Source: an uncultured Gammaproteobacteria bacterium | GTDB taxonomy: Bacteria > Patescibacteriota > Patescibacteriia > Magasanikbacterales > GWA2-37-8 | Direction of reading: 5' to 3' | Assembly: GCA_964465205.1 (NCBI GenBank) | Contig: CAYXJO010000003.1 | Location: forward strand, 14,693-78,692 | Length of the DNA: 64,000 bases | Notes under the pieces: generated by a model | Database searches by the model: none | Seen by the model: only the letters and a program-made list of their open reading frames with translations | What the model was told of the DNA's origin: nothing | In this document: one piece after another, positions 34,309 to 61,038 of the stretch | How the letters are laid out: every line of letters starts with the position of its first letter | How positions within the stretch are numbered: position 1 is the stretch's first letter | Position numbers and translations under genes: made by a program

Positions 34309-36393
34309 ATGCGCAAAACCCTCGAACAGGTGGTAAAAATTTTAATTTACGCCACTTTTTTTGTACCACTAATTGTGGTACCGTCGTCGTTTATTTTTCC
34401 GTTTATTGTACCGAAAATTCTAATGTTTAGATCGCTGGTGGAAATTATGTTGGGGGCTTATGTCCTGCTACTAATTATCAATTGGCAAGAATACAAGCCG
34501 CGATTTACCGCGCTCAACTTGACTTTGGCCGCATTTTTACTCAGTTTTGCGCTTTCGACTTTTTTTGGGGTTGATCCGTATCATAGTTTTTGGGATAATC
34601 ACGAACGTATGTTGGGGTTGTTTACCATTATTCACTGTGTGATATATTATTTCATTTGTACCGCCATGTTTCGCACTTGGGCCGATTGGAAATGGGCGTT
34701 GCGCGGGTTTCTCTTGGCCGGTGCGGCCGTGATGTTTGTGGCTTTTATGCAAACCCAGAATCCCAATCTTTTATTGGGTCAGGGATCGTCGCGTACTGCT
34801 AGTACGTTGGGCAACCCAATTTATGTGGGTGGCTATGGGTTGTTTTTGACATTTGTAGCGTTTTTGTTGGCCATACGCGAGAAAAATAATGTCTGGCGAG
34901 CAGTAGAAATAGTTTTGGGACTGTTGGCATTCTTGGCGATTTTTTGGAGTGGCACGCGTGGTTCGCTATTGGGATTTGTGGCGGGTGCGGCGGTAGCGGT
35001 ATTGGGTTATATAGTAGTGCTCAAAGAACACAAAAAAATTCGTTGGAGTCTGATAGGCATTGCGATTTTGGGAGTAGTAGCGATTGGTTTATTATATGGA
35101 TTTCGCAAAACCGAATTTGTTACCAATTTGCCGGCAGTGGGGCGTACGGTCAACACTTCTTTGGCCGATGTGCAGGCCAGTCCGCGTTGGATTGCTTGGA
35201 CGATTGCAATCCAGAGTTGGAAAGATATGCCGATTTTTGGTTGGGGTCCGAATAATTTTTTCTATGCATTCAATGATCACTATAATCCGCGCTCGTTGGA
35301 TTTTGGATATGGCGAAACTTGGTTTGATAACGCCCACAATATTATTGTAAATACCTTGGCGGTGCAGGGGACATTTGGTATTCTCACTTATTTGGCTGTT
35401 TTTGTCATCGGAGTGTTATCGCTCATCTTAGCCTGGCGTAAATTTGGACTTAATTTCCATATTGCGGTAGTTGGTTCGGCGTTTTTGGTAGCACACTTAG
35501 TGGGCAATATTACTGTGTTTGAAAATCCAACATCATATTTGTATTTCATGTTTTGGCTGGCATTTCTAAATAGTGTGGCGAATCCGCGTGAACAAAAAAA
35601 CGCGGAAGTAGAGGACAAAACCAAAAAAGTAGTGGCTAAATCCGCAGCGCCAGATCGCAAGATTGGTGCCGGGGCGATCTCCGGGGTAGGGGTGGTAGTA
35701 ATGATTTTTGTGTTTGTGTTTAATATCCAACCGGCGCGAGCTAATATGATGACATTGGACGCGATTCGTTATCTATCTCAAGACGTGATTTTGGCCGTAC
35801 CAGCGATGAAAACCGCTCTGGAGTTCAATTCTCCGCATATTGATGATATTCGAGCAGATATTGGCCGTACCGCGGCCCAGACATTGGGAGCGGCATATCA
35901 GAAATTAGGCAAAGATCGTAGTAATGAGATACTGCAGATCGCTTATGATAATTTAAAGAAAAATTTAATTTTGCATCCTTTGGATATTCGCAATCAGCTG
36001 ACTTTGGCGCAACTCGCGCAACTTGGCGCAGTGATTAACCAGAATATTAATTTTATCTTGGATGCAGAGAAATTTTTGGATGATGCCCAGGTCAAATCTC
36101 CACGTCGCCAGCAGGTAGCTTATGCTTTGGCCGGAGTGAAAATGCAATTAGGTAAAAATGCCGAAGCGTTTAAAATTTTAGAACAGACCATTACCGACAA
36201 TCCGCGCGTTGCCGAGAGTTATTGGCGGCTAGCTTATGCATATAAGGTGTTGGGCAATCAGGTAAAAGCCGTGGAGGTTCTTAATTTGGCGAACAAAAAC
36301 GGCGTGGTATTTGGCGAACAGGATCAAGGGATAGTGTCTCAGATACTTGCACCCACGCCCAGTTCTTCTGCGGCGGTGAAGATCAATAAGTAA
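34309..36393 (+). CDS. O-antigen ligase/polymerase-like (Wzy_C) polytopic membrane protein with C-terminal TPR repeats
   Basis: ~12 TM N-terminal domain (FWSGTRGSLLGF Wzy_C-like loop). C-terminal soluble TPR-like helices (AYALAGVKMQLGKNAEAFKILEQTITDNPRVAESYWRLAYAYKVLGN). Confidence 0.65.
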   Translation: MRKTLEQVVKILIYATFFVPLIVVPSSFIFPFIVPKILMFRSLVEIMLGAYVLLLIINWQEYKPRFTALNLTLAAFLLSFALSTFFGVDPYHSFWDNHERMLGLFTIIHCVIYYFICTAMFRTWADWKWALRGFLLAGAAVMFVAFMQTQNPNLLLGQGSSRTASTLGNPIYVGGYGLFLTFVAFLLAIREKNNVWRAVEIVLGLLAFLAIFWSGTRGSLLGFVAGAAVAVLGYIVVLKEHKKIRWSLIGIAILGVVAIGLLYGFRKTEFVTNLPAVGRTVNTSLADVQASPRWIAWTIAIQSWKDMPIFGWGPNNFFYAFNDHYNPRSLDFGYGETWFDNAHNIIVNTLAVQGTFGILTYLAVFVIGVLSLILAWRKFGLNFHIAVVGSAFLVAHLVGNITVFENPTSYLYFMFWLAFLNSVANPREQKNAEVEDKTKKVVAKSAAPDRKIGAGAISGVGVVVMIFVFVFNIQPARANMMTLDAIRYLSQDVILAVPAMKTALEFNSPHIDDIRADIGRTAAQTLGAAYQKLGKDRSNEILQIAYDNLKKNLILHPLDIRNQLTLAQLAQLGAVINQNINFILDAEKFLDDAQVKSPRRQQVAYALAGVKMQLGKNAEAFKILEQTITDNPRVAESYWRLAYAYKVLGNQVKAVEVLNLANKNGVVFGEQDQGIVSQILAPTPSSSAAVKINK

Positions 36394-36409
36394 ATTGTAG
36401 CACCTACAT

Positions 36410-37126
36410 ATGTTTTTTTCAGTCGTAATCCCGGTGTACAACGAGGAGCGACGTATACCCAGAAGCATTGATCAGATTTTTGATTTTTTTGCCGGTTTTA
36501 CTGACCACCGAATAGAAATAATTTTTGTGAACGACGGATCGTCTGATCAAACTGCCAAGGTATTACAAGATTACCAAACGAAATATAAATTCAAAGTTAT
36601 TGATTACACAGTGAATCGCGGCAAGGGTTACGCTGTAAAACAAGGGGCGTTGGCCGCTGGTGGTGATTGGATAATATTTTTTGATATTGATTTGGCTACT
36701 CCCTTGAATGAGTTCAATCATTTATTGCAGTTTATGAAATCAGACGACCGACTAATTATTGGTAGTCGTCGTTTGGGTGAATCGAAAATTGAAAAAAGTG
36801 AATCAAGTATCCGAGTGTTTTTGGGTCAGGGTTTCACCAAGTTGTCCAATATTTTGGTGCCCGGCATTACCGATTTCACTTGTGGTTTCAAATGTTTTTC
36901 TCGGCAAGCGGCGCAAACTATTTTTCCTTTGGCGCGAATTGATCGTTGGGGTTTTGACACGGAATTATTGTATATAGCCAAACTAAAGAAGTTGTCTATA
37001 CGTCAAATGCCGGTAGCTTGGGCACATGACAATGATTCACGAGTTAATGTAATTAAAGCCGTGATCAGTTCGTTTCGCGAATTGTGTCAGATGAAGTGGA
37101 ATCAAATCAAGGGTTTGTATAAATAA
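36410..37126 (+). CDS. GT2 glycosyltransferase, dolichol/polyprenol-phosphate sugar synthase (DPM1/GtrB-like)
   Basis: VVIPVYNEERRI, FVNDGSSDQT (DxD region), 238 aa soluble GT-A. Confidence 0.8.
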   Translation: MFFSVVIPVYNEERRIPRSIDQIFDFFAGFTDHRIEIIFVNDGSSDQTAKVLQDYQTKYKFKVIDYTVNRGKGYAVKQGALAAGGDWIIFFDIDLATPLNEFNHLLQFMKSDDRLIIGSRRLGESKIEKSESSIRVFLGQGFTKLSNILVPGITDFTCGFKCFSRQAAQTIFPLARIDRWGFDTELLYIAKLKKLSIRQMPVAWAHDNDSRVNVIKAVISSFRELCQMKWNQIKGLYK

Positions 37127-38655: not shown

Positions 38656-39459
38656 ATGATAACTAGTGATGTTATCATTAATTTACGTAAGAGGTGTTTG
38701 TTTGTGATTAGACAAATTTATCGTTTGTTGATAATTTTTCCGTTTTTAATAGTTGTGCAAATAATTCACATATTGACTAATTATTTCTGTAAAAAAAATA
38801 CAACAGAGCCTTTAGTTGACAATTGTTTTGTGGTATCATCGGTGATTTTCCCCCACCCGCGCAGATTGACATATGCGTCTCGGCGCTCAGTTTTTACCCC
38901 CGATCAACGAATTGCACAAACGATTGAAACCGTACTCTCTATTAGGAAATATGCTTCAAGTGCCAAAATAATTTTAGTGGAGGGGGGTATGGTAGGGGAC
39001 TTGCCAAAAACTTTACTGTCTTTGGTTGATGAATACATCTATGTTGGCGGTAAATCGTTGGTGAGGTGGGCTTGTGATAGTTGGTTCAAGAGTTTAGGCG
39101 AGGCCATGATGCTATTGTCCGCTGCCAAACAGATTGAGAAAATCCGTGCCAAATTATATTTTAAAATTAGCGGACGTTATGTTTTGAATGAGCAATTCAA
39201 TCCATCTGATTATGTTATTGAAAAATTTAGTTTTCATTCCATTAGGTCAGATTTTTTTTCTACCAGGTTATATAGTTTTCCCGGTGAACTGTTTAGTATC
39301 TGGACAGTCGCCTTATTGAAAGGTTTGCCATATAATTTGATGGATTATCCAATTGAGCATACTTTGTACAAATTTATACCAAAAAAATTTATTAGTGCGG
39401 TAGCCACTTTGGGGATAGGTGGTTTAGACGCCACCGGAGGGTTAGGGGTGCGTGAATAA
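38656..39459 (+). CDS. Hypothetical protein (N-terminal TM), unknown function, inside glycan island
   Basis: 267-aa ORF, no recognisable motif. Confidence 0.4.
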   Translation: MITSDVIINLRKRCLFVIRQIYRLLIIFPFLIVVQIIHILTNYFCKKNTTEPLVDNCFVVSSVIFPHPRRLTYASRRSVFTPDQRIAQTIETVLSIRKYASSAKIILVEGGMVGDLPKTLLSLVDEYIYVGGKSLVRWACDSWFKSLGEAMMLLSAAKQIEKIRAKLYFKISGRYVLNEQFNPSDYVIEKFSFHSIRSDFFSTRLYSFPGELFSIWTVALLKGLPYNLMDYPIEHTLYKFIPKKFISAVATLGIGGLDATGGLGVRE

Positions 39460-39462: not shown

Positions 39463-40758
39463 ATGTTTGATCATATCAAAAAAATATTATCCAAGAAGAC
39501 ATTGCATGAGTTTGGTTTTGTATATTTTGGAGCATTGATAAATGGTGTTTCTTTGTTTGCGCTTAATGCTATTTTGGCTCGTCATCTCACTACTGACTTA
39601 TTTGGTATTTTTACATTGGCAGTTTTGGTATTAAGCACCGTGGCGGAGTTGTCTGACTTTGGTCTAAATGCCGGGTTGTTGCGTTTTGTACCATTTTATT
39701 TAGCTACCGAACAGTTGGAAAAAATGAAACAATTGGTGAAAACGGTTTGGGTTTGGCGGGTTAGTTTGTCTTGGGCGCTATCGATATTTTGTCTGCTCGC
39801 ATCTTCGTTTTTGGCAAAATATGTTTTTGGGCGTGCTGTTATTGCACCATATATTGCGTTTGCTTCACTGGGAATTGGTGGAGTGATTCTATTGGGATTC
39901 GTGTCTACTTTTTTGCACGCCAAACAGGATTTTTTTCGTAGCGCCACCGCACAGACTCTCAAAGGAACACTGCGTTTAGTTATGGTCATCGCGCTGGTGT
40001 TGCTCAAAGTTGACAATCTATTTGCGTATTTGGCTGTGTATACTTTTGTGCCTTGGATTTTATTTTTTATTTATTATAAATTTTTACCAGAAAATTTTCG
40101 TAAAATCGAGATTGACATTGATTCAAAAAAACAATTACATACTCAACTGGCCCAATTTAGTACCTGGCTAACCATTTCATCGTTGTTGTCAATAGTTGCC
40201 AGCCGAGTTGATCAGGCCATGATTAGCAATTTGCTGGGCTTACAAGAAGTTGCAATATTTGTAGTTGCTTATCAATTGATACAATTTTATCCGTTAATAT
40301 ATAATTCTATCTCTTCGGTAATGATGCCCAAAGTGAGCGCGTTGCACAACAAAGTGGATTTGACCAATACTGTCTTTAAGTTGGCAAAGTGGGTATTATT
40401 GGTAGTATTATTATTGGCGATTGTAATATATCCTTCCCAATATATAATCATATTATTGTTTGGCACCAAATATGCCGCCGCAATGCCGGTATATTTAATT
40501 TTGGCTTATAGCTTGTTGCTAAATATCATATCTATTCCTTTCTCCCTTATTATTACAGTATTTAATAAAACTAATTTAGTGGCAATGTCTGGAGTTTTAC
40601 AAATTATTATTAATGTTGTTTTTAATTTCATATTGTTGCCGAGATTTGGTTTGATGGGCGCGGCCTACACCTTCGGCATAGGTTTGTTGGTCGGTCTGTT
40701 GTACAATGTTGTTTGCGCACTTTTTTTATTCAAGAAGCGCGATTTTAGGTTGGCATAA
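39463..40758 (+). CDS. Wzx-like oligosaccharide flippase (polysaccharide biosynthesis protein, MOP superfamily)
   Basis: 431 aa, ~12-14 TM, typical Polysacc_synt topology and size. Confidence 0.7.
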   Translation: MFDHIKKILSKKTLHEFGFVYFGALINGVSLFALNAILARHLTTDLFGIFTLAVLVLSTVAELSDFGLNAGLLRFVPFYLATEQLEKMKQLVKTVWVWRVSLSWALSIFCLLASSFLAKYVFGRAVIAPYIAFASLGIGGVILLGFVSTFLHAKQDFFRSATAQTLKGTLRLVMVIALVLLKVDNLFAYLAVYTFVPWILFFIYYKFLPENFRKIEIDIDSKKQLHTQLAQFSTWLTISSLLSIVASRVDQAMISNLLGLQEVAIFVVAYQLIQFYPLIYNSISSVMMPKVSALHNKVDLTNTVFKLAKWVLLVVLLLAIVIYPSQYIIILLFGTKYAAAMPVYLILAYSLLLNIISIPFSLIITVFNKTNLVAMSGVLQIIINVVFNFILLPRFGLMGAAYTFGIGLLVGLLYNVVCALFLFKKRDFRLA

Positions 40759-40764: not shown

Positions 40765-41424
40765 ATGAATCATAATTATCAATTGGATATCAATCCTTTT
40801 ACTACACATACCATGTTGTTGGCAGAAGTGCCGAATGATGCAAATGTTTTGGAGATCGGCACGGCTTCCGGTTATCTTGGTAGATATCTAATTAAGAATA
40901 AGAGTTGTGTGGTGAGTGGGGTGGAGCCATTTGAGGGTGCGTACAATCACGCCGTGTCTTGTGGTTATCGAAAAATTGTTAATAAAAGCGCGGAACAGAC
41001 TATCGCCAACGATGATTTTGTTGGGGAAAAGTTCGATGTTATTTTGTTGGCCGATGTGCTGGAACATTTGGTGGATCCGACACAGGTTTTACGTGATTTA
41101 AAAAAATATCTTAAGCCCGACGGTCGCATTGTTATCTCTCTTCCTAACGTGGCGTATTTTGAGGTGCGTCTTAGTTTGTTGTTTGGCAGGTGGAATATGA
41201 CCGAAGCTGGTATACTTGATAAAACGCATTTGCATTTTTTTACCATGAATACCGCCAGAGATTTGATTGTGAATTCCGGATTGGTAGTAGAAAAGTGTCG
41301 CCCACTTTCCGGTACTTTTGAACGATTTGGATATAATAAACTATTTCGAATCGGCCAAAAATTATTATTTATGTTTCCGAAACTGTTTGCTTATCAGATT
41401 TTATTAGTAGCTCGTTTGGATTAA
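40765..41424 (+). CDS. Class I SAM-dependent methyltransferase (paralog of 51476..52144)
   Basis: VLEIGTASGYLGRY motif I. LLADVLEHL. ~45% identical over full length to the 51476 gene. Confidence 0.75.
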   Translation: MNHNYQLDINPFTTHTMLLAEVPNDANVLEIGTASGYLGRYLIKNKSCVVSGVEPFEGAYNHAVSCGYRKIVNKSAEQTIANDDFVGEKFDVILLADVLEHLVDPTQVLRDLKKYLKPDGRIVISLPNVAYFEVRLSLLFGRWNMTEAGILDKTHLHFFTMNTARDLIVNSGLVVEKCRPLSGTFERFGYNKLFRIGQKLLFMFPKLFAYQILLVARLD

Positions 41425-41431: not shown

Positions 41432-42223
41432 ATGCCAACTATTACTGCCCATTGTTTGGTAAAAAATGAAGAAAATTTTGTTGGTTATGCCATTAGATCG
41501 GTGGTTGATTTTGTTGATAAAATTATTGTGTTTGATACCGGATCTACAGATAAGACGGTGAGAATAGTACAAGAATTAGCCGTTGAATATCCACACAAGA
41601 TTTTATTTGAAGAAAAGGGCGAGTGTGATAAACAACGCCATACTCAATTGCGCCAAGAGATGTTGGACAGAACCACTACCGATTGGTTTATGGTTTTAGA
41701 TGGCGATGAGGTATGGACGAAGCGGGGAATGGAGGAAGTAAGCGAAGTTATTGCAAATAATAATTCAATAGAATGTTTAGTGGCCCCTTTTTATTTGTGT
41801 GTAGGGGATATTTATCATAGATATTATAAAAGAAGTAACTTTCGAATACTTAACAGAGTTGGTTCTTTTTCTCCACGAATTATTCAAAAGACACAGGATA
41901 TTCATTGGAGTGGCGCGTATGGAAATGATACGTTATTATTTGGAGACGGATCTATTATTAACAACTTGGAGAATACATTGTTTTTAAAACATAAATACTG
42001 GCACCTAACCAATTTACCCAGATCGTCCTTTGACCACACAGACTTTAGTTCTAATGGTAATCGATCTGAAAAAAGAAGGATAACACACTTTTTAATTGGC
42101 AGAAAAATTAAAGACAAAATTCCCGAGGTTTTTGGTGATGATTTTTATCATTTAGGACATATTATGTCGGTAATAAATTTTTTAAAATTATTAATATCTA
42201 AGGTGCGGTTTTTGAATGTGTAA
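41432..42223 (+). CDS. GT2-like glycosyltransferase (paralog-like to 50017..50829)
   Basis: HCLVKNEENFVGYAIRSVVDFVDKIIVFDTGSTDKT and DGDEVW (DxD). Confidence 0.6.
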   Translation: MPTITAHCLVKNEENFVGYAIRSVVDFVDKIIVFDTGSTDKTVRIVQELAVEYPHKILFEEKGECDKQRHTQLRQEMLDRTTTDWFMVLDGDEVWTKRGMEEVSEVIANNNSIECLVAPFYLCVGDIYHRYYKRSNFRILNRVGSFSPRIIQKTQDIHWSGAYGNDTLLFGDGSIINNLENTLFLKHKYWHLTNLPRSSFDHTDFSSNGNRSEKRRITHFLIGRKIKDKIPEVFGDDFYHLGHIMSVINFLKLLISKVRFLNV

Positions 42224-42237
42224 TATTGTTTGTTATA

Positions 42238-44654: not shown

Positions 44655-44673
44655 CCAGTTTTTTATAATATTT

Positions 44674-50010: not shown

Positions 50011-50016
50011 TTTTTT

Positions 50017-51467: not shown

Positions 51468-51475
51468 TCGATTAT

Positions 51476-52144: not shown

Positions 52145-52209
52145 ATTTTAAATCAGGAGTTATTTTGCCTGATGCGATTATAATATATAAAATATTTAAG
52201 ACAGTTCAT

Positions 52210-52833: not shown

Positions 52834-52839
52834 TTTTTT

Positions 52840-55213: not shown

Positions 55214-56173
55214 ATGTTTTCTCTAGTAATCACAGTTTTAAACGAGCGTCAAAACCTGCAACGTTGGTTGGAGAGTATTTTGAATCAAACCGTACTGCCC
55301 GATGAAATAGTTGTGGTTGATGGCGGTTCGACTGATGGTACGCGGGAATTACTTGATAGTTTTGCTGCGCAAAATAAAATTTTGAAAGTTTTTAGTAAAC
55401 CGGGCAATATTGCCTCGGGGAGAAACTATGGTATCAGCCAGGCCAGCAGCGATATCATTGTGGTAACAGATGCTGGTTGTATTTATAATAAAGAGTGGTT
55501 TCGTAAACTAACAAACGTGTTTGCTAATCCCAATGTGGCGTGGGCCGCCTCGGCTTTTGGTCCTTGGTTGGAGCGTGAAGATAACATGGGAAAATATTTG
55601 ATTGCTGCCGCTACCACCCCTGCCCCGAGTGAATTTAGAAAAGATTGGTTGCCATCTAGTCGATCAGTGGCTTTTCGCAAAGATGTTTGGGAGAAAGTAG
55701 GTAGTTATCCGGAATGGATTCCAATTTGTGAGGATATAGTTTTTGATTTGGCGATTATCAAATTATTTGGCAAGCCGACATTAGTGCGAGAGCCCTTGGT
55801 GTTCTGGCGTCCCAGACCGAATTGGCGCGCGTTTTTGAAACAGTTGTATCGCTATACCAAAAGTGATGGCCATGGCAATTTGTGGCTAGGGCGACAATTA
55901 ACCAGGTATACTGTTTATGGAGCTGCTGTCATTTTGTTGTGGTTGGCGGGGGATGTTAGTTGGTTATTTGTTTGGCCGATTATTTTGGGGTTATTTGTTT
56001 ATTGTTGGAAATTTTGGAAACGTTGGTTGGTGTTTACTCAGACACTGCCGACTATACCGAGACTGATTGGTTTGGTTGTTTTACCCATAGTTATTGCTTT
56101 GGGAGACTGTGCAAAAATGGCTGGTTGGCCGGTTGGGGTTTATGAAAGAATAATGCATAAAAAATATGTTTAA
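55214..56173 (+). CDS. GT2 glycosyltransferase with C-terminal membrane anchor
   Basis: LVITVLNE, VVDGGSTDGT, VTDAGC; C-terminal TM helices. Confidence 0.75.
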   Translation: MFSLVITVLNERQNLQRWLESILNQTVLPDEIVVVDGGSTDGTRELLDSFAAQNKILKVFSKPGNIASGRNYGISQASSDIIVVTDAGCIYNKEWFRKLTNVFANPNVAWAASAFGPWLEREDNMGKYLIAAATTPAPSEFRKDWLPSSRSVAFRKDVWEKVGSYPEWIPICEDIVFDLAIIKLFGKPTLVREPLVFWRPRPNWRAFLKQLYRYTKSDGHGNLWLGRQLTRYTVYGAAVILLWLAGDVSWLFVWPIILGLFVYCWKFWKRWLVFTQTLPTIPRLIGLVVLPIVIALGDCAKMAGWPVGVYERIMHKKYV

Positions 56174-56894
56174 TACTGTTTTTTTAGTATTGATCTCATT
56201 GTTGGCAATATATTTAATTTGGTTTTTGTTGAGGATGTTGTTTTGTCTGGTCTATGTGAAACTGGCTCAGCACCGCAAGACAAATAGTAATCAATCGGGG
56301 GTTGTTGAATCAAAGGAAGTATCTGGTAGCCAACAAAACAAAATAAAAAAAATTATAGCAGTAGCTGTTAGTGGATTTTTTCGTTACCAAATTATTATTG
56401 TTGGTAGAATTCCGTCGCATTTTATTAGAAAATTTTTATATCGTCATGTATTTGGTATGAAAATAGGTTCACGAGCGGTGATTTATAGTGGTGCAGAAAT
56501 TCGCAGTCCGTGGAATATTACAATCGACGAAGGTACTATTATTGGCGATGAAAGCAAGTTGGATGGTCGCAATGGTTTGATTATTGGTAAAAATGTGAAT
56601 TTGAGTACTGGTGTTTGGCTTTGGACCGATGAGCACGATGTGAATGATCCATATTTTCGCAGTAATAATAAAGGTGGACCAATCGTAATTGCTGATCGTG
56701 TATGGCTGGGTGGGCGTGTGATTGTATTACCTGGAGTAAAATTGGCTGAAGGCGCGGTGGTGGCGTCTGGGGCGGTAGTGACAAAAGACGTGGACCAATA
56801 TACTATAGTGGGTGGCGTACCTGCCAGGCCAATAGGCGAACGCAATCGTGATTTAAAATACGAATTTGATGGTAGTCATTTGTGGTTTTATTAA
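56166..56894 (+). CDS. Hexapeptide-repeat acetyltransferase with N-terminal TM anchor (WcaF/WbbJ-like)
   Basis: N-terminal TM, then IGKNVNLSTGVWLWT...VWLGGRVIVLPGVKLAEGAVVASGAVV LbH repeats. Confidence 0.7.
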   Translation: MFNTVFLVLISLLAIYLIWFLLRMLFCLVYVKLAQHRKTNSNQSGVVESKEVSGSQQNKIKKIIAVAVSGFFRYQIIIVGRIPSHFIRKFLYRHVFGMKIGSRAVIYSGAEIRSPWNITIDEGTIIGDESKLDGRNGLIIGKNVNLSTGVWLWTDEHDVNDPYFRSNNKGGPIVIADRVWLGGRVIVLPGVKLAEGAVVASGAVVTKDVDQYTIVGGVPARPIGERNRDLKYEFDGSHLWFY

Positions 56895-56897: not shown

Positions 56898-57755
56898 ATG
56901 AAATTATCAATCATTATAGTCAATTGGAATACCGAGGAATTGTTGCGCCAGCTTTTGGTCATGATTTCTCGTTATGTGGTCGGATTAGATTATGAAGTAA
57001 TAGTGGTAGATAATAATTCTGGTGACGACAGTGTCACAATGTTGAAAAAAGAATTTCCGCAAGTGAAATTAATCGCCAATGACGATAACTTAGGTTTTGC
57101 CAAAGCCAATAATCAAGGGATGGCTGTTGCTTCGGGAGAGTACATGATGTTGCTAAACACAGATATCATATTGCATAATAATGCTATTGGAATGTTGGTT
57201 GACTTTTTAGATACACATCCAGACGTTACCATGGTTGGCCCGCAATTACTCAATAAAGACGGTACTTTCCAGCATGCCTGCCGGCGTAATTTGCCTAATC
57301 CTATTAATTCATTTTTTCATATCTTTGGCTTTACAAAGATATTTAAACACAGTAAACTGGTTAGTGGTTACAAGCGTCAAAATGATGATCCAAATACTAC
57401 TGGCCCAACCGAGGCTATTTCTGGTGCGGCAATGATGTTTCGACGTGGTTTTTATGAAGCCTGTGGGGGGTTAGATGAGAACTTTTTCTTTTACGGAGAA
57501 GACATCGATTTTTGTAAACGAGTGTATGACAGTGGTGGGCAAATAGTATACGTGAGCGCTGCCAAGATAGTGCATTTGGGAGGAGAAAGTAGCAAAAAAC
57601 GCCGTCGAAGTGCACTCAGTAATTTTTATGATGCAATGTGGCGTTATTATCGCAAACATTTTTATCATCAGCACAATTTGGTTCTGAATATTGTGGTGTG
57701 GGTGGGCATAAAATTGAGATTGGGTATAGCTATAGTGATAAATTATTTTAAATAA
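56898..57755 (+). CDS. GT2 glycosyltransferase
   Basis: [26 protein letters not shown]. Confidence 0.8.
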
Positions 57756-57756: not shown

Positions 57757-58698
57757 ATGAAGACAGCATTGATTACTGGCGGAGCGGGATTTATTGGATC
57801 ACATTTGTGCGAACGTTTGTTGGCCGATGGGTATCGGGTGATTTGTGTTGATAATTTATTTACTAGTAGTCGAGAAAATATAAAACATTTAGAGAGTAAT
57901 GGAAATTTTCTGTTTATTGAACACGATATTGTTAATCCTCTAAATTTAGACGACAAAATAGATGAAATCTACAATTTAGCTTGTCCCGCTTCGCCGGTTC
58001 ACTATCAACGGGATGCGATATTTACTGTTAAAACAAATATAATCGGCGCAATAAATATCTTAGATTTGGCCCGTACCAAAGGTGCGGTTGTTTTCCAATC
58101 TTCGACCTCGGAAGTGTATGGTGACCCAAGCGTTCATCCCCAGGTAGAATCTTATCGGGGCAACGTGAATCCAATTGGCCCACGTGCTTGTTATGATGAG
58201 GGCAAACGCTGCGCCGAGACCTTGTTTTTCGATTACAATCGTATGTATAACGTGCCCATAAAGGTGGTGCGTATATTTAATACGTTCGGTCCCCGTATGG
58301 ATAGTAATGATGGCCGGGTGGTGTCAAATTTTATTGTCCAAGCTTTGAAAAATGAAGATATTACTATTTATGGTGACGGCACCCAGACGCGTAGTTTTTG
58401 TTATGTCGATGACTTAATTAATGGTTTCGTAAAGATGATGGCTAGTGACCGGAGTGTTATCGGTCCGGTGAACTTAGGGAATCCCCAAGAAATTACCGTT
58501 AAAACCATGGCCGAAGCTATTATTGAAATGACGGGATCAAAAAGTAAAATAGTATATCAAGATTTACCCACAGATGATCCCACCAGAAGGTGTCCGGATA
58601 TCACTTTGGCCAAAACAAAATTAGGTTGGCAGCCACAGGTGGATTGGAAGGTTGGAATAGAAAAAACTATTAAATATTTCCAAACTATAATTAGATAA
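57757..58698 (+). CDS. uxs: UDP-glucuronate decarboxylase (UDP-xylose synthase)
   Basis: [49 protein letters not shown] catalytic YxxxK. Follows eukaryote/bacterial UXS pattern. Confidence 0.8.
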
Positions 58699-58701: not shown

Positions 58702-60108
58702 ATGCGTGTTTTATATATTGGTGGAGGTTTTGTGGGGAGTTGTTCGGCGGCAGTATCGGCCGATAGCGGGCACGAAACTTTGGTCTTTGATACCGATCAG
58801 AAAAAAATAGAAATGCTCGGCTCGCAAGATCGTGACGCTATACAAAGCTGCCTGTTTGAGGATGGGTTAGCAGATTTGTTGATTAAGAATAAAGATAGAA
58901 TTCGATTTACTTACGATTATGGTCAAGTGGATAAATTTTTGGATGATTGCGATGTGATTTTTATGTGTTTGCCAACACCGGAAGTAGGGGAGACTGGTGA
59001 AACTAATTTGAGTTATTATCTTACAGCTCTAGAGCAAATATCCAAGAGTTTGGCTAAACGCAATGGTGGAAAACAAGAAAAATATGTGGTGGTAGTGAAC
59101 AAGAGCACAGTACCGATAGATATGATAAATAAAACCGATGAGGTGTTAAAGAGTGCCGGTGTTATTAATTGTGGGGCTGTGTCCAATCCAGAATTTTTGG
59201 TGGAAGGCAAGGCGGTACATTGTTCTATTCGCCCATATCGAATTGTGGTGGGCGCCTGGAACGACATCGATTTTGTGGTGATGCGCAAATTGTATGAACG
59301 ATTTTGCACATCTTCTACCGTGCAGTATATTGAAGTGAATCCCAAAGAGGCGGCGGCCGGTAAACTATTAGCCAATTATGTGCTATTTAACAAATTGGCG
59401 GTGTGTTTTGATGTGGTTGGCCGCGCTTGCGAGACTTTTGCGGATTTGCAATTTGAAAACGTGCGAAAAATATTAGTCAGTGAACCGAGAATTGGTAATT
59501 GGGGTCTTTATGATAGTTTGTATGCGGGCGGTAGTTGTTTTATAAAAGACGCGCGTTCTTTGGCTTATCAATTACAGACCAATGGACAAAACGCAGTGAT
59601 GGTAAATGAAACTTATTTGGCCAATCGCAGACAGTTGGAGCTGTTTATTGGCCGGGCGGAACGAGATGCTCGATTTGATTGGCATGATAAAGTCGTGGTG
59701 ATTTTTGGGCTAAGTTTCAAGCAAGATACTAACGACATTAGAAATGCTCCCAGTATTGACATCGTAAACTTTCTTCTAGAAAAACAAGTAAAAGAAATTC
59801 ATGTGCATGATCCGGTATCGATTCCGATGTTCAAAAAAGCGTTTGATGTCACCAAAGATGCTCGATTTGATAAAATAAAATATTTTGATAACGAATCTGA
59901 CGCGCTAGTGAACACACAAGCGGCAATCGTCGCCACTGATTGGCCAAAGTATCGTACTTTGGGTGATTTGATTCTGGGGCAATGTAAATCGCCGTATTTG
60001 GTAATGGATGGACGTAGAATGTTAGCTCAACAGTATGGTGATTTAATTGCGGCGGGGTTTGATTTGGTAGCGGTGGGCAGCCACTTTGTTTCTAATGATC
60101 GTAAATAA
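58702..60108 (+). CDS. ugd: UDP-glucose 6-dehydrogenase
   Basis: LYIGGGFVGSCSAAV NAD motif, NPEFLVEGKAV, catalytic-Cys motif GGSCFIKD. Confidence 0.88.
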   Translation: MRVLYIGGGFVGSCSAAVSADSGHETLVFDTDQKKIEMLGSQDRDAIQSCLFEDGLADLLIKNKDRIRFTYDYGQVDKFLDDCDVIFMCLPTPEVGETGETNLSYYLTALEQISKSLAKRNGGKQEKYVVVVNKSTVPIDMINKTDEVLKSAGVINCGAVSNPEFLVEGKAVHCSIRPYRIVVGAWNDIDFVVMRKLYERFCTSSTVQYIEVNPKEAAAGKLLANYVLFNKLAVCFDVVGRACETFADLQFENVRKILVSEPRIGNWGLYDSLYAGGSCFIKDARSLAYQLQTNGQNAVMVNETYLANRRQLELFIGRAERDARFDWHDKVVVIFGLSFKQDTNDIRNAPSIDIVNFLLEKQVKEIHVHDPVSIPMFKKAFDVTKDARFDKIKYFDNESDALVNTQAAIVATDWPKYRTLGDLILGQCKSPYLVMDGRRMLAQQYGDLIAAGFDLVAVGSHFVSNDRK

Positions 60109-60123
60109 TATATTAAGATAATT

Positions 60124-61038
60124 ATGTCTCATTACCTGGTTACTGGTGGAGCGGGTTTTATTGGTGCCAATTTGGTCAAACAGCTTTTGGCTGATGGCCA
60201 CACCGTCACTGTATTGGATAATTATGTCGCCGGGAAAAAATCAGAACGCCACCATACGGCCGCGACTTATGTAGATGGGGATGTACGAAATCCGGCAGAT
60301 TTGGATAAAGTGTGCGTTGGGATTGAAGGTATTTTTCATTTGGCCGCGTTGCCGCGGGTGTCGTATTCAGTAGAATATCCCGACATTACGCATGATGTGA
60401 ATGTGGGTGGTACATTGCAAGTCTTGCTCGCCGCTCGTCGTCATAATATCAAACGAGTAGTGTTTTCGTCTTCTGCCTCGGTGTATGGTGAGCGGGATAG
60501 TCACGAGTTGTTAAACGAGCAGGCTAAACACAATCCTTCCAGTCCGTATGCTTTGCATAAGTCTATTGGCGAACAGTATTGTCGCTTGTTTTCCCAATTA
60601 TATGGATTGCAGACGGTCAGTTTGATATATTTTAATGTTTATGGACCGTATTTTGATCCGGATGGCGCGTACGCTCTGGTGGTAGGTAAGTTTTTAAAAC
60701 AAAAACAAGAAAATAAACCAATGACTGTTTGTGGTGATGGTGAATATTATCGCGATTATGTGCACGTGGCAGAAGTAGTGCGTGCCAATATTTTGGCTAT
60801 GCAATCCGATCGGGTGGGTAAGGGCGAAAGCATTAATATTGGTTGTGGTCGCCCGACTACAGTGAATGAGTTGGTAAAAATCATGGGCGGAGAATTTGTT
60901 TATATACCGGCTCGGTTGGGTGATCCCAGGTTTTCCGGTGCTGATAATACCAAAGCTAAGGAGCTACTCGATTGGGAGCCAACTATTAAATTGGAAGACG
61001 GCATTGCTCAACTGAAAAAAGAATGGAAAGTAGAATAA
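60124..61038 (+). CDS. NAD-dependent sugar-nucleotide epimerase (WbpP/UDP-GlcNAc or UDP-xylose 4-epimerase-like)
   Basis: [29 protein letters not shown] (YxxxK). Downstream of ugd-uxs. Confidence 0.75.
   Translation: MSHYLVTGGAGFIGANLVKQLLADGHTVTVLDNYVAGKKSERHHTAATYVDGDVRNPADLDKVCVGIEGIFHLAALPRVSYSVEYPDITHDVNVGGTLQVLLAARRHNIKRVVFSSSASVYGERDSHELLNEQAKHNPSSPYALHKSIGEQYCRLFSQLYGLQTVSLIYFNVYGPYFDPDGAYALVVGKFLKQKQENKPMTVCGDGEYYRDYVHVAEVVRANILAMQSDRVGKGESINIGCGRPTTVNELVKIMGGEFVYIPARLGDPRFSGADNTKAKELLDWEPTIKLEDGIAQLKKEWKVE

Follow-up and report, generated by a model that had tools for sequence, protein, structure and literature searches.

The region between positions 34309 and 61038 of a 64,000-nucleotide stretch of DNA from a Patescibacteria (CPR) bacterium (the window) is filled with glycosylation genes, which raises the question of what glycan is assembled there, on which carrier and for which acceptor. 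An initial annotation had read this island as a candidate protein O-glycosylation system with three pairs of a DPM1/GtrB-like GT2 and a membrane-bound GT-C glycosyltransferase. Family searches and a comparison with 27 related Patescibacteria loci (26 informative for the first module, 12 with enough upstream flank) make it very likely that the island is an operon-like surface-glycan biosynthesis locus operating on a lipid carrier with extracytoplasmic GT-C steps. Genes and proteins are designated by their start positions.

Organization of the island

As initially described, the island is co-directional: its 28 open reading frames all lie on the + strand and are separated by no more than 48 nt or overlap slightly (Table 1). 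Its G+C content is 0.33-0.41 compared to 0.42-0.47 upstream, and the next gene after the last island gene is rpmA on the - strand (61158-61433). Besides the synthase/GT-C modules, the island encodes a Wzx flippase, a Wzy_C-TPR enzyme, seven further nucleotide-sugar (cytoplasmic-type) glycosyltransferases, four methyltransferases and two acetyltransferases. Five SAM methyltransferases had been counted before, of which Pfam recovers the four at 40765, 43959, 51476 and 52165; the two LbH acetyltransferases are the hexapeptide enzymes 50826 and 56166.

Table 1. Protein-coding features of the island and of the block upstream of it.
Position (strand)	Product	Matches and features
25037..25582 (+)	ECF-type sigma-70 factor, first gene of conserved upstream block	Pfam Sigma70_r2, Sigma70_r4_2
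25614..26963 (+)	Single-pass membrane protein, candidate anti-sigma partner	Pfam DUF5667; TM helix aa 72-90
27230..30892 (+)	Secreted Thr-rich protein, 1220 aa	Signal-peptide-like N-terminus
31120..31659 (+)	Single-pass membrane protein, 179 aa	TM helix aa 11-29; no Pfam match
31662..34157 (+)	Secreted protein, 831 aa	Thr/Pro/Ser-rich linker
34309..36393 (+)	Polytopic O-antigen ligase/O-oligosaccharyltransferase-type enzyme	Wzy_C; C-terminal TPR domain
36410..37126 (+)	TM-less GT2, candidate polyprenyl-phosphate-sugar synthase, 238 aa	
37133..38650 (+)	GT-C glycosyltransferase, 505 aa	ALG3/PIG-M/PimE/ALG6 structural class
38656..39459 (+)	Membrane-anchored GT-A-fold glycosyltransferase, 267 aa	Family without Pfam model
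39463..40758 (+)	Wzx-type (MOP superfamily) lipid-linked sugar flippase	Pfam Polysacc_synt, Polysacc_synt_3
40765..41424 (+)	SAM methyltransferase 1	Pfam Methyltransf_23 and related
41432..42223 (+)	GT2, not synthase-like, conserved core	Pfam Glycos_transf_2
42216..43226 (+)	UDP-glucose 4-epimerase (GalE)	NCBIfam galE 382.9 bits (cut-off 262.3)
43223..43966 (+)	Sugar-1-phosphate nucleotidyltransferase, HddC- or ManC-like	Pfam NTP_transferase; NCBIfam HddC E 2.4e-26, below cut-off
43959..44654 (+)	SAM methyltransferase 2	Pfam Methyltransf_11 and related
44674..46020 (+)	GT4 (GT-B fold) glycosyltransferase	Pfam Glycos_transf_1
46017..47024 (+)	GHMP kinase, HddA-like (heptose-7-P kinase)	NCBIfam HddA E 6.8e-50, below cut-off
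47027..47632 (+)	SIS-domain isomerase, GmhA-like	NCBIfam gmhA E ~1e-28, below cut-off
47622..48113 (+)	HAD-IIIA phosphatase, GmhB-like	NCBIfam GmhB E 1.8e-42, 144.9 bits (cut-off 178)
48162..48854 (+)	TM-less GT2, candidate polyprenyl-phosphate-sugar synthase, 230 aa	
48805..50010 (+)	PMT_2-type GT-C, 401 aa	50-nt overlap with preceding GT2 gene
50017..50829 (+)	GT2, not synthase-like	Pfam Glycos_transf_2; NCBIfam weak SunS, TIGR04283 only
50826..51467 (+)	Hexapeptide-repeat O-acetyltransferase, Vat/CatB-like	Pfam Hexapep, NCBIfam
51476..52144 (+)	SAM methyltransferase 3	Pfam MetW, Methyltransf_23
52165..52833 (+)	SAM methyltransferase 4	Pfam Methyltransf_25, Methyltransf_11
52840..54324 (+)	PMT_2-type GT-C, orphan module 3, 494 aa	
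54346..55209 (+)	GT2, rhamnosyltransferase/GlfT1 type	
55214..56173 (+)	GT2, GtrB-like architecture, 319 aa	Two C-terminal TM helices, aa 239-257, 278-296
56166..56894 (+)	WcaF-like hexapeptide acetyltransferase	Pfam Hexapep; NCBIfam WcaF family E 2.6e-30; N-terminal TM helix aa 4-22
56898..57755 (+)	GT2 glycosyltransferase	Pfam Glycos_transf_2, Glyco_tranf_2_3
57757..58698 (+)	SDR nucleotide-sugar dehydratase or decarboxylase	Pfam Epimerase, GDP_Man_Dehyd; NCBIfam matches below cut-offs
58702..60108 (+)	Nucleotide-sugar 6-dehydrogenase (UDP-glucose dehydrogenase type)	NCBIfam NDP-sugDHase 229 bits (cut-off 189.8)
60124..61038 (+)	SDR nucleotide-sugar epimerase, GalE- or TviC-like, last island gene	Pfam Epimerase; NCBIfam matches below cut-offs

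A GDP-heptose pathway is likely encoded in the island. The GmhA-, HddA- and GmhB-like genes and the sugar-1-phosphate nucleotidyltransferase gene agree with the heptose part of the heptose/xylose glycan proposed earlier, with all heptose-pathway enzymes scoring below the NCBIfam equivalog cut-offs. The xylose part is unproven: the UDP-glucose dehydrogenase and the two SDR enzymes all lack a match at equivalog cut-off, and SDR 57757 may act like UXS or the ArnA C-terminus. Two of the further glycosyltransferases recur in related loci. Orthologues of GT2 41432, which has a weak SunS match as its sole NCBIfam hit, are found in 21 of the 27 loci (246-339 bits). Of these 27 loci, 14 have the 38656 gene within the cassette. 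Its product gave no match in Pfam, NCBIfam or PDB sequence searches; the AF2 model (pLDDT 94.9) most resembled glycogenin (GT8) and GT6 enzymes in Foldseek (E ~1e-6).

Two candidate synthase/GT-C modules and a third GT-C

The first module consists of GT2 36410 and GT-C 37133. Top NCBIfam matches of the GT2 were PgfS, ArnC, PpgS and Dol-P-hexose transferase, and top PDB matches were Pyrococcus furiosus DPMS (5mlz), GtrB (5ekp) and ArnC. An orthologous GT2 gene stands directly upstream of the GT-C gene in 18 of 26 informative loci, mostly with one methyltransferase gene in between, and six of the remaining eight have, 3-4.5 kb upstream, a gene for an ArnC/GtrB-type GT2 with an SDLQDPP motif and two TM helices at the C-terminus.

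In the second module, GT2 48162 matched AglJ (NCBIfam, E 1.5e-31) as well as PpgS, PgfS and ArnC, and aligned with DPMS 5mlz over the full length (3.6e-18). Its partner 48805, initially annotated from 48838, scored 33.3 bits with Pfam PMT_2 (gathering cut-off 26.1). Single-protein GT2+PMT_2 fusions of 618-673 aa account for 15 of the 85 homologues of 48805. When one of them (P0033) was aligned end to end with the window proteins, its N-terminal half was 46% identical to 48162 and its C-terminal half 59% to 48805. All three stand-alone homologues examined are preceded immediately by a gene for a GT2 of 200-236 aa. D49 and T50, located after TM1, are invariant in the 48805 family. Since TM1 of the fusion is preceded by the GT2 domain, which is cytoplasmic, the loop carrying these residues would lie outside.

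The third GT-C, 52840, also exceeded the PMT_2 cut-off (47.1 bits vs 26.1) and matched the NCBIfam mannosyltransferase MT1671 family (E 7e-14, aa 15-380). It displays a W-L-D41-E42 motif after TM1 and an HPPLYY motif. No dedicated synthase gene was found adjoining it, and methyltransferase gene 52165 fills the slot that holds a DPM1-like GT2 gene in two relatives (L001, L005). GT2 54346, the partner originally proposed, was rejected as a DPM1/GtrB-like synthase: its best NCBIfam matches were rhamnosyltransferase (E 3.2e-13), GlfT1 and MftF, and the PDB sequence search returned none. What is left of the third pair is a GT-C beside an ordinary GT2. The following GT2, 55214, carries TDAG instead of DxD. 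It matched synthases weakly (ArnC, PgfS and AglJ at E 0.0003-0.008 in NCBIfam; DPMS 5mlz over aa 3-253, E 3.6e-6). Synthase-type best matches were limited to 36410 and 48162 and did not occur among the other five GT2s.

Two of the three postulated pairs, 36410/37133 and 48162/48805, are thus well supported. Wzy polymerases or transporters among the three polytopic proteins would have refuted the initial reading, but none was of either kind. The central idea of cytoplasmic polyprenyl-phosphate loading and extracytoplasmic GT-C transfer is upheld for these two modules by family matches, conserved adjacency and recurrent fusions.

A Wzy_C-TPR enzyme and a Wzx flippase

The initial annotation listed 34309 and gave no role to a Wzy_C-TPR enzyme or a Wzx flippase. 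Protein 34309 scored 67.9 bits with Pfam Wzy_C (cut-off 31.7) and carries TPR matches at aa 604-661. Between 12 and 13 TM helices were predicted; placing the TPR domain outside the membrane is a hand-made hydropathy argument that requires the 13th helix. Orthologues were found in 17 loci. R217, R293 and H343, invariant across 16 orthologues, match the R/R/H set common to WaaL and PglL (PMC3643930), and the combination of Wzy_C with a C-terminal TPR has been described for WsfB and PglL (PMC2943079). Wzx 39463, with a weak WzxE match, is kept in 25 of the 27 related loci. The Wzy_C-TPR enzyme, the flippase and the seven nucleotide-sugar-type glycosyltransferases together suggest a lipid-linked oligo- or polysaccharide, which would be decorated by the GT-Cs.

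Secreted proteins encoded upstream

In nine of 12 informative loci the Wzy_C-TPR gene is immediately preceded by a conserved block in the order sigma factor, DUF5667 protein, secreted protein of about 1230 aa; the homologues of the 1220-aa protein at this place measure 1227-1307 aa. Orthologues of the DUF5667 protein occur in seven loci, and L010, L019, L020 and L025 have a sigma factor orthologue upstream of the cassette. The 1220-aa protein had no Pfam or PDB match and contains no known domain. As a candidate for the major surface (S-layer-like) protein, it could serve as glycan acceptor or as glycan-anchored partner. The 831-aa protein, a candidate O-glycosylation target, gave a weak Zn_dep_PLPC match below cut-off; a homologue is encoded upstream of the cassette in L003, preceded there by a small ORF similar to 31120.

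Long Thr/Pro/Ser-rich linkers had been ascribed to four proteins. In a composition scan, S/T/P exceeded 60% over about 150 residues (aa 367-514) of the 831-aa protein. The single-pass membrane proteins 5444 and 4633 have rich stretches right after the TM helix (46 aa of the same kind in 5444; a peak of 57% in a 30-aa window in 4633), and the 1220-aa protein contains 24% S/T/P overall without a dense linker. Genes of O-oligosaccharyltransferases often adjoin their targets, as in 21 of 31 cases for pglL (PMC3643930).

Proposed pathway and alternatives

Family assignments indicate that UDP-Gal would be supplied in the cytoplasm by GalE and a uronic acid by UDP-glucose dehydrogenase; GDP-D-glycero-D-manno-heptose probably comes from the GmhA-, HddA-, GmhB- and HddC-like enzymes. 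After initiation by a priming enzyme encoded elsewhere, the seven GT2, GT4 and GT-A glycosyltransferases may build an oligosaccharide on undecaprenyl phosphate, to be tailored by the four methyltransferases and two acetyltransferases. Wzx would move the lipid-linked glycan and/or polyprenyl-phosphate-monosaccharides across the membrane. In the best supported step, the TM-less DPM1-like GT2s 36410 and 48162 would load single sugars on polyprenyl phosphate for GT-Cs 37133 and 48805 to pass on at the outer membrane face; 52840 would act likewise with a donor from either synthase or from GT2 55214. We regard nucleotide-sugar supply and this loading and transfer step, taken together, as highly probable. 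The final step is the least certain: the Wzy_C-TPR enzyme may move the finished glycan to Ser, Thr or Tyr residues of neighbouring secreted proteins, the candidates being the conserved one of 1220 aa and perhaps that of 831 aa. Attachment to neighbouring secreted proteins is probable as a general reading; for a protein end-point through Wzy_C-TPR, our confidence stays just short of even.

Should the acceptor be a protein, en bloc transfer by Wzy_C-TPR is more likely than the Pmt-type O-mannosylation put forward initially. This earlier reading is unsupported because no window protein matched Pfam PMT (PF02366) or YfhO at E <=0.01, one GT2 had been misassigned, and the closest GT-C relatives (ALG3, PIG-M, PimE, ALG6 and the Rv1635c-type mannosyltransferase) act on lipid-linked glycans or lipoglycans.

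A strong rival is that the island makes a wall polysaccharide instead of a glycoprotein. The Wzy_C family also includes polymerases and ligases, and NCBIfam matches of 34309 include the teichuronic acid polymerase TuaE (E 8e-8), with no match to Pfam PglL_A (PF15864). Conserved synteny does link the surface proteins to the island, as the initial annotation supposed, but it is equally expected if a wall polysaccharide made by the island serves as anchor for the large protein, and it cannot separate a glycosylated protein from one anchored to the glycan. Wzz/PCP, LCP ligase and priming transferase genes were absent from the island and from the recurrent genes of the 27 related loci, which counted for an S-layer-like model; the window as a whole contains no priming phosphoglycosyltransferase, which counts against it, as do the absence of a GtrA-type flippase, the lack of a dedicated synthase gene for 52840 and the below-cut-off scores of the heptose-pathway enzymes. 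Our best, still tentative, model is a pathway resembling S-layer glycan synthesis in Paenibacillus alvei.

The transfer to protein postulated here would follow the route of P. alvei WsfB and of PglL. The P. alvei locus also encodes WsfH and WsfD, a lipid-phosphate-glucose synthase and a membrane transferase for the branching glucose, a precedent for synthase/GT-C modules within an S-layer glycan locus. As a whole, the island probably functions in the manner of slg (S-layer-glycan) loci in Gram-positive bacteria; the pathway logic known from those bacteria is unstudied in Patescibacteria.

Organization of the island and its surroundings

The island comprises 28 ORFs, every one of them on the plus strand, separated by gaps of at most 48 nt or overlapping by a few bases. 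Its upstream boundary is the gene of an 831-aa secreted protein; downstream it ends at rpmA (ribosomal protein L27), beyond which come a small membrane ORF and ftsW. Housekeeping genes elsewhere in the window are ybeY, ftsA, ftsZ, nrdR, glyA and those of pyruvate kinase and an ABC-F protein. The sole RNA gene detected in the window encodes tRNA-Val (TAC). Rfam and tRNA scans of the island found nothing, and promoter and terminator scans gave results not above the shuffled expectation. The window also encodes a 528-aa protein with Radical_SAM, Radical_SAM_C and GNAT acetyltransferase domains. Elp3, which modifies the wobble uridine of tRNA and is uncommon in bacteria, has this domain architecture.

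The G+C content is 0.42-0.47 in the upstream and housekeeping part and 0.33-0.41 in the island, with a minimum of 0.33-0.36 at 42-54 kb. This low-G+C stretch coincides with the island genes that differ among related genomes, and the dip together with the variable genes is consistent with an exchange of glycan-tailoring genes.

Coordinates of features in the window and in related loci (island proteins are named in the text by their gene start positions in the window)
Feature	Sequence	Coordinates	Strand	Remark
Pair of adjacent single-pass membrane proteins	window	4633-5430, 5444-6637		just upstream of ybeY, ftsA, ftsZ
528-aa protein	window	16389-17978	-	Elp3 architecture
tRNA-Val (TAC)	window	20905-20979		sole RNA gene detected
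Sigma / DUF5667 / 1220-aa protein block	window	25037-30892		genes at 25037, 25614, 27230
831-aa secreted protein	window	31662-34157		upstream boundary of island
Glycosylation island	window	34309-61038	+	28 ORFs
267-aa GT-A protein	window	38656-39459	+	predicted GT-A fold
GT2 protein	window	41432-42223	+	SunS-family match
Low-G+C stretch	window	42000-54000		variable gene content
GT2 protein	window	50017-50829	+	SunS-family match
Methyltransferase	window	52165-52833	+	directly before 52840
rpmA	window	61158-61433	-	downstream end of island
Asparagine synthase homologue	L001	5147-7030		absent from window
DPM1-like GT2	L001	12943-13665
DPM1-like GT2	L005	16529-17224
MBOAT O-acyltransferase	L006	9775-11250		absent from window
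ABC-transporter ATPase	L020	15413-16726		absent from window
GT2-PMT_2 fusion	L028	8425 onward
GT2-PMT_2 fusion	L030	6368 onward

Close relatives of the island proteins all came from Patescibacteria MAGs (Magasanikbacteria, Paceibacterota, Parcubacteria), which makes the 'CPR-like' host guessed in the initial annotation a reasonable one. 'Uncultured Gammaproteobacteria' is the record title of many MAGs bearing the cassette, and 'Candidatus Udaeobacter' that of one (L001, L002, L004-L006, L011, L018, L021, L023-L025, L027, L008); mislabelling of the records or mis-binning of contigs is the probable cause.

Among the nucleotide-sugar genes, GalE scored above the NCBIfam equivalog cut-off and a nucleotide-sugar 6-dehydrogenase (58702) above the subfamily cut-off. 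Heptose-pathway models were matched as well (GmhA, E 4e-28; HddA, 7e-50; GmhB, 2e-42; HddC, 2e-26), each as best or near-best match and all under equivalog cut-offs. The HddC match is that of a nucleotidyltransferase that is HddC/ManC-like, and a further two SDR enzymes also lie below the NCBIfam cut-offs. The island also encodes a GT4, SAM methyltransferases (four) and hexapeptide acetyltransferases (two), and a Wzx-type flippase (39463) was recognized by Pfam Polysacc_synt (66.5 bits) and Polysacc_synt_3 (60.7 bits). A small flippase of the GtrA/GtcA type was not found: there is no GtrA-like Pfam match among the 28 island proteins, and the intergenic spaces are too short for an extra gene. 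GtrA does not recur in the related loci either. Wzz/PCP, LCP and priming phosphoglycosyltransferases were found neither among the Pfam-scanned window proteins nor among the recurrent accessory genes of 27 related loci. Scanning the window and these loci for the WbaP/PglC motif 'DE[LIVM]PQ' and for WecA/MraY motifs, using crude regular expressions that could miss divergent enzymes, detected one WbaP-like gene only, in L005. Wzz/PCP and the priming enzyme may be encoded elsewhere in the genome. Accessory genes seen in relatives and absent from the window encode an asparagine synthase homologue, an MBOAT O-acyltransferase and an ABC-transporter ATPase.

Three polytopic proteins of the GT-C type

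The gathering score of Pfam PMT_2 (26.1 bits) was exceeded by 48805 (401 aa, 33.3 bits) and 52840 (494 aa, 47.1 bits). In NCBIfam, residues 15-380 of the latter also matched the model of the MT1671-type mannosyltransferase from M. tuberculosis at an E-value of 7e-14, far under the equivalog cut-off. Directly after the first transmembrane (TM) helix, 52840 displays the residues W-L-D41-E42, and it contains an HPPLYY motif; the corresponding residues of 48805 are D49-T50-E51. The island has polytopic GT-C-fold transferases in which an extracytoplasmic loop contains a conserved acidic motif. A loop-1 Asp-Glu motif is common also to ArnT-like enzymes whose acceptors are not proteins.

The third polytopic protein, 37133 (505 aa), lacks a DE motif in the first loop and gave no match in our local Pfam copy, which does not include PF26314, or in NCBIfam, even at E <= 10. 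All of its 30 database homologues carry the precomputed family PF26314; one partial homologue additionally carries GT87 (PF09594) and one is named alpha-1,6-mannosyltransferase by JGI. A literature search on PF26314 found nothing. The fold of 37133 is that of the ALG3/PIG-M/PimE/ALG6 class of GT-C enzymes. Given the PMT_2 and MT1671 matches and the PF26314/GT87 homologues, all three polytopic proteins are GT-C glycosyltransferases, as had been proposed for 37133, 48805 (then placed at 48838) and 52840, and not Wzy polymerases or transporters.

No window protein matched Pfam PMT (PF02366), MIR or PMT_4TMC at E <= 0.01. Matches to PF02366 were weak, precomputed and restricted to homologues of 48805, many of which carry them. 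Pfam YfhO was matched by none of the three GT-Cs at E <= 0.01 and by 37133 not even at E <= 10. PDB sequence searches returned nothing for 37133 and the 267-aa protein (both as profiles), 52840, the GT2 protein 54346 and the 1220-aa protein. The closest relatives of the window GT-Cs act on lipid-linked glycans or lipoglycans. The acceptor class cannot be read from the GT-C family alone: depending on the species, YfhO members use teichoic acids or proteins.

Two GT2 proteins resemble polyprenyl-phosphate-sugar synthases

Pfam Glycos_transf_2 was found in seven island proteins, and two of them alone (36410 and 48162) resemble polyprenyl-phosphate-sugar synthases. The best NCBIfam match of 36410 (238 aa) was PgfS (3.6e-20), followed by ArnC, PpgS and Dol-P-hexose transferase; in the PDB it matched DPMS (5mlz, 7.9e-15), GtrB (5ekp) and ArnC. 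For 48162 (230 aa), the NCBIfam matches were AglJ (1.5e-31), PpgS, PgfS and ArnC, and the PDB match to DPMS 5mlz was full-length at 3.6e-18. All NCBIfam scores are far under the equivalog cut-offs, and the putative assignment of both proteins as synthases is one of type-level similarity only. Neither protein has TM helices, and human DPM1, PpgS and GacI likewise have none.

The other GT2 proteins displayed different affinities. 54346, claimed at first as a third DPM1/GtrB-like enzyme beside 36410 and 48162, matched rhamnosyltransferase, GlfT1 and MftF models, so that the claim stands for two of the three proteins. No synthase-type NCBIfam model matched 41432 or 50017 at E <= 1e-6. Their sole NCBIfam match is to the N-terminal GT2 region in peptide S-glycosyltransferases of the SunS family; it is weak (E about 1e-11) and probably reflects generic GT-A similarity only. 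For 56898 there were marginal ArnC and PgfS matches only (27 and 25.6 bits, E about 1e-6). We considered 55214 (319 aa) as a candidate for the missing third synthase on account of its GtrB-like length and its pair of C-terminal TM helices; it displays TDAG instead of DxD and a marginal similarity to synthases (ArnC, PgfS, AglJ).

Synthases and GT-C proteins are linked in related genomes

Related loci were collected by scanning the 37133 profile against one genome per species (GTDB), which yielded 27 loci, and the ORFs of these loci were searched with the island proteins. In 18 of the 26 informative loci, the GT-C orthologue is directly preceded by an orthologue of 36410 (319-386 bits), usually with a gene for a methyltransferase of ~245 aa in between, which the window does not have. 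Six of the other eight loci (L008, L009, L014, L018, L021, L022) harbor an ArnC/GtrB-type GT2 of 312-318 aa with the motif SDLQDPP and two C-terminal TM helices, located 3-4.5 kb upstream of the GT-C gene. The 505-aa GT-C family therefore travels with a lipid-phosphate-sugar synthase of either type. Between the two genes of these six loci sits a DegT-like aminotransferase gene, which suggests an amino sugar as the lipid-linked donor there; the GT2 and aminotransferase genes fall at about 5-7.7 kb in locus coordinates.

Coupling was even covalent in the family of 48805. Among 85 homologues, 15 are single proteins of 618-673 aa with GT2 and PMT_2/PMT domains, and 70 are stand-alone. In one such fusion (P0033, from a Magasanikbacteria MAG), residues 1-224 align with the entire 48162 at 46% identity and residues 233-618 with residues 18-400 of 48805 at 59% identity. 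The three stand-alone homologues that were checked all have a GT2 gene of 200-236 aa immediately upstream, and each of their loci contains a second GT2+PMT pair or a fusion of 733-737 aa. At the level of sequence, the fusions are strong evidence that 48162 and 48805 would act together. The GT2 domain of a fusion must be cytoplasmic; the first TM helix consequently runs from inside to outside, and the loop of 48805 with the invariant D49-T50 faces outward. To our knowledge, a recurrent covalent fusion of synthase and GT-C has not been described for characterised systems.

GT2-PMT_2 fusions of 618-737 aa with a DPM1-like GT2 part (P0033, P0036, P0065 and others, including those in L028 and L030) recur in Patescibacteria, often beside a split pair, resulting in tandem module arrays. 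We rejected the idea that the overlap of 48162 and 48805 marks a broken fusion or pseudogene, given the 70 stand-alone homologues and a similar short overlap or gap in other genomes.

Synthase-GT-C linkage is thus borne out for two of the three pairs that had been named. The third, 54346/52840, did not hold, as the neighbouring GT2 is not synthase-like and 52840 has no adjacent synthase gene in the window. In L001 and L005, the slot occupied in the window by the methyltransferase gene before 52840 contains a DPM1-like GT2. The window appears, from this gene order, to have lost or replaced the third synthase.

The Wzy_C-TPR protein and a 267-aa GT-A protein

The first protein of the island, 34309 (694 aa), matched Pfam Wzy_C with 67.9 bits. 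TPR matches at residues 604-661 were all under the gathering scores (TPR_19, 23.2 versus 25; TPR_14, 18.4 versus 23.5; TPR_16, 18.2 versus 32.7 bits), and the PDB matches of the protein were to engineered TPR proteins only, with no WaaL or PglL structure among them. It is the only candidate for a Wzy polymerase; its TuaE match (E 8e-8) is far below the cut-off, and the domain is shared by polymerases, ligases and oligosaccharyltransferases (OTases). R217, R293 and H343 are invariant in 16 orthologues and, judged by motif context and not by an alignment to WaaL or PglL, would be equivalent to R215, R288 and H338 of WaaL. An Arg/Arg/His set is common to WaaL and PglL (PMC3643930). PglL_A (PF15864) did not match 34309 at E <= 0.01. 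This motif is also absent from PilO (PMC3643930) and hence not required for O-OTase activity. Hydropathy analysis displayed 12 clear TM helices and a possible further one at residues 408-424; with a 13th helix, the TPR domain would come to lie outside and the K/R-rich loop 425-451 on the inner side.

The 267-aa protein 38656 matched no Pfam or NCBIfam model. Its predicted model (pLDDT 94.9) has a GT-A fold nearest to retaining GT8/GT6 enzymes. The N-terminus forms a long TM helix with a charge bias of +4 on the N side and 0 on the C side, which hints that the catalytic domain of the modelled protein could face outward, unusual for a GT-A enzyme.

A conserved core follows a block with a giant secreted protein

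Comparison of the loci revealed a conserved gene order: Wzy_C-TPR, GT2 synthase, (methyltransferase), GT-C, (267-aa GT-A), Wzx, (methyltransferase) and a GT2 of the 41432 type. Genes farther downstream vary between loci, in agreement with the G+C profile. Conservation continues beyond the island start given in the initial annotation. Directly 5' of the Wzy_C-TPR gene, homologues of the ECF sigma factor (25037), the DUF5667 membrane protein (25614) and the Thr-rich, secreted 1220-aa protein (27230) occur in the same order in nine of the 12 loci with enough upstream sequence (L010, L017, L019, L020, L023-L027). A DUF5667 protein is thus also present in the window outside the island; in several relatives, DUF5667 proteins end in S/T/P-rich tails. 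In the window, the genes of the 831-aa protein and of a small membrane protein separate this block from the Wzy_C-TPR gene; in L003, counterparts of both precede the cassette.

The 1220-aa protein (~1230 aa in relatives) has a putative signal peptide, 12% Thr and 24% S/T/P, and no Pfam match. In the 831-aa protein, about 150 residues consist of S/T/P to more than 60%. The adjacent single-pass membrane proteins 4633 and 5444 each exhibit an S/T/P-rich stretch between the TM helix, which it directly adjoins, and calcium-binding repeats of the bacterial TSP3 type.

Discussion

The gene content agrees with a lipid-carrier glycan pathway whose GT-C enzymes add sugars following export, the logic of 'multi-component transmembrane glycosylation' as reviewed for wall polymers of Gram-positive bacteria, where TM-less synthases and Wzx-type flippases also occur (PMC8035078). 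The model that we prefer, tentatively but as one that could well be right, is that the glycan is O-linked en bloc to the neighbouring secreted proteins and that the GT-Cs act on the glycan. The Wzy_C-TPR enzyme would carry out this O-linkage to the adjacent secreted proteins. The third GT-C, 52840, could share the synthase of another module, as is known for GttA in Listeria, where one synthase serves two GT-Cs (PMC8035078). Our preference comes from the ligase/OTase-type residues and the TPR domain of the Wzy_C protein, the conserved adjacent secreted protein and the lack of chain-length and wall-ligation genes. Quite possible as well, and accounting for the same genes nearly as well, is a wall or capsular polysaccharide locus of teichuronic-acid-like or SCWP-like type. 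Here, Wzx would flip the repeat unit, the Wzy_C-TPR protein would be a Wzy/TuaE-type polymerase, the GT2/GT-C modules would add side-chain sugars (cf. GacI/GacK/GacL, CsdAB and GtsABC), and linkage to peptidoglycan or lipid would be left to enzymes encoded elsewhere. The 1220-aa protein would be a surface-layer protein that binds the polymer and is not glycosylated, which would explain the synteny. Wzx and Wzy_C are the classical Wzy-dependent pair, and NCBIfam returned TuaE for 34309, TuaG for the GT2s and TuaD for 58702. The closest relatives of the GT-Cs work on glycans or lipoglycans, the low G+C content and variable mid-island genes resemble O-antigen and capsule loci, and Firmicutes provide examples of wall polysaccharides decorated by PMT_2-type GT-Cs together with a Wzx-type flippase and a GT-A partner that is either TM-less or TM-anchored (PMC8035078). 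However, Wzz/PCP, an LCP ligase and a priming transferase were not found in the window and do not recur in the 27 loci, and the Wzy_C protein has kept the R/R/H residues and TPR domain of O-OTases such as WsfB and PglL. Moreover, seven cytoplasmic glycosyltransferases and three GT-Cs would produce a very large repeat unit.

Direct transfer of single sugars from polyprenyl-phosphate-sugars to Ser/Thr residues of the disordered extracytoplasmic linkers in 31662, 4633 and 5444 by one or more of the GT-Cs, the Pmt/Pgf-type mechanism of the initial annotation, is unlikely, and it could coexist with en bloc transfer or with a polysaccharide. Such transfer is carried out by GtrB/PgtC2 and PgfS/PgfM1 in streptococci and by Ppm1/Pmt in actinobacteria. 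The window does encode matching linkers in the 831-aa protein and, in juxtamembrane position, in 4633 and 5444. PgfS is the best NCBIfam match of 36410, the DE motif in loop 1 of 52840 is typical of PMT/ArnT-like enzymes, and many homologues of 48805 carry the weak precomputed PF02366 matches. In streptococci, a GT2 synthase and a GT-C have been shown to O-glycosylate extracytoplasmic IDRs rich in S/T (PMC12041528), but these streptococcal GT-Cs belong to the YfhO family, and by profile the window GT-Cs are neither PMT nor YfhO. Their closest relatives act on lipid-linked glycans or lipoarabinomannan (MT1671 family), GT-C family membership does not give the acceptor class, and Wzx, Wzy_C-TPR and seven other glycosyltransferases would be left without a role. 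Most of the island stays unexplained by the Pmt-type proposal. For the initial annotation as a whole, the observation was confirmed in part and its interpretation supported in part. Very improbable is a lipoglycan resembling lipomannan or LAM, in which the DPM1-like synthases would act as Ppm1 and GT-Cs similar to PimE/MptA and Rv1635c would elongate and cap a membrane-anchored glycolipid on the outer face. The GT87 match and the alpha-1,6-mannosyltransferase name among 37133 homologues and the MT1671 family match of 52840 would fit, and the logic of Ppm1 plus GT-C is established in mycobacteria (PMC3485146, PMC12041525). Identity to the mycobacterial enzymes is 11-14%, however; PimA/PimB-type phosphatidylinositol-mannoside enzymes and acyltransferases were not identified, and Wzx, Wzy_C-TPR and the diverse non-mannose sugar pathways would have no explanation.

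Taking the preferred model further, the region from 25037 to about 42200 might constitute a surface-protein glycosylation system specific to Patescibacteria, a proposal that we put forward as doubtful but possible. It would consist of an ECF sigma factor, an anti-sigma factor, the secreted protein of ~1230 aa, Wzy_C-TPR, a polyprenyl-phosphate-sugar synthase, a GT-C of the PimE/ALG3 class, a new GT-A family, Wzx and a GT2. The giant protein would be an S-layer or major surface protein, glycosylated en bloc by Wzy_C-TPR as O-oligosaccharyltransferase, and split or fused GT2-GT-C modules, variable between strains, would diversify the glycan outside the cell. If true, this system would be a candidate determinant of host attachment and phage/host recognition in CPR. 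The Patescibacteria (CPR) are a large, mostly uncultivated radiation of ultrasmall and mostly episymbiotic bacteria, whose cultivated members are attached to other microbes. The surface is central to their biology for this reason; our literature search found no paper on glycosylation machinery in CPR. The cassette, which joins a large secreted protein, a ligase/OTase-type enzyme and lipid-carrier glycosylation modules in a conserved manner, provides a testable candidate. For a phylum with an essentially unstudied surface biology, the conserved association of this cassette with a giant secreted protein and a putative sigma/anti-sigma pair is noteworthy, as is the use of an ALG3/PIG-M/PimE-class GT-C within a bacterial surface-glycan cassette. 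Two families, the 505-aa GT-C and the 267-aa GT-A (no Pfam model), come without usable annotation. The natural GT2-GT-C fusions fix topology and partner choice and could become compact structural or glyco-engineering tools. Characterised counterparts exist for all components and for the logic as a whole, and for each step they are found in Firmicutes, Actinobacteria or Proteobacteria; no new principle is involved.

Comparison with known systems

The closest whole-locus analogue that we found, likened by its published description and not by sequence, is the S-layer glycan (slg) locus of Paenibacillus alvei CCM 2051T (PMC2943079). Its WsfB is a Wzy_C enzyme with a C-terminal TPR motif, predicted to be an O-oligosaccharyltransferase, and its WsfH and WsfD, a lipid-phosphate-glucose synthase and a membrane transferase, add a branching glucose (PMC2943079). 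Both features, Wzy_C with C-terminal TPR and the pair of synthase and membrane transferase, are common to the two loci. They likewise share the grouping of nucleotide-sugar, glycosyltransferase and tailoring genes with a surface-protein gene nearby (spaA in P. alvei), and the related locus L001 contains a counterpart of wsfA, an asparagine-synthase homologue. In contrast, P. alvei exports the glycan by a Wzm/Wzt ABC transporter instead of Wzx and encodes its priming enzyme WsfP inside the locus, whereas the window has none. Unlike P. alvei, the island contains three GT-Cs and TM-less synthases, and its relatives encode fused synthase-GT-C proteins.

The module logic is that of the Gram-positive wall-polymer systems GacI/J/K/L, CsbB/GtcA/YfhO, GtlA/GtlB, CsdAB and GtsABC (PMC8035078) and of Gtr and ArnC/ArnT in Gram-negatives, in which a GT-A enzyme (GT2) makes the C55-P-sugar and a GT-C, often of PMT_2 type, transfers it outside. 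Genes of these systems are usually adjacent, and they offer precedents for a TM-less synthase (GacI), a Wzx-type flippase (GacK) and one synthase for two GT-Cs (GttA). The island differs in having neither a flippase of GtrA/GtcA type nor a GacJ-like helper, and one of its GT-Cs belongs to the ALG3/PIG-M/PimE structural class, unlike those of the ArnT/PMT_2/YfhO-class systems. With protein O-glycosylation of the streptococcal Pgf type and of the Pmt type, it has in common a candidate synthase and a GT-C that would act outside the membrane as well as candidate S/T/P-rich linkers in the window. The window GT-Cs match neither the Pfam model of the streptococcal YfhO family nor that of Pmt (GT39), and a whole oligosaccharide-assembly toolkit is carried by the island, in contrast to the simple Pgf/Pmt systems.

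PglL, PilO and WaaL (PMC3643930) resemble the Wzy_C-TPR protein in their Wzy_C domain, in the invariant Arg/Arg/His residues in and around the large external loop and in the location of the gene beside that of a candidate target protein. The island protein deviates from them by the lack of the PglL_A motif and by its long C-terminal TPR extension, and its neighbour is a 1220-aa secreted protein instead of a pilin. Furthermore, the host is presumably monoderm and without a lipid A-core acceptor. As with mycobacterial Ppm1 and PimE, MptA/B and Rv1635c (PMC3485146, PMC12041525), a DPM1-like synthase would feed GT-Cs, and 52840 matches the Rv1635c-type family; unlike there, identity is low, PIM pathway genes are lacking and the sugars are probably not mannose alone.
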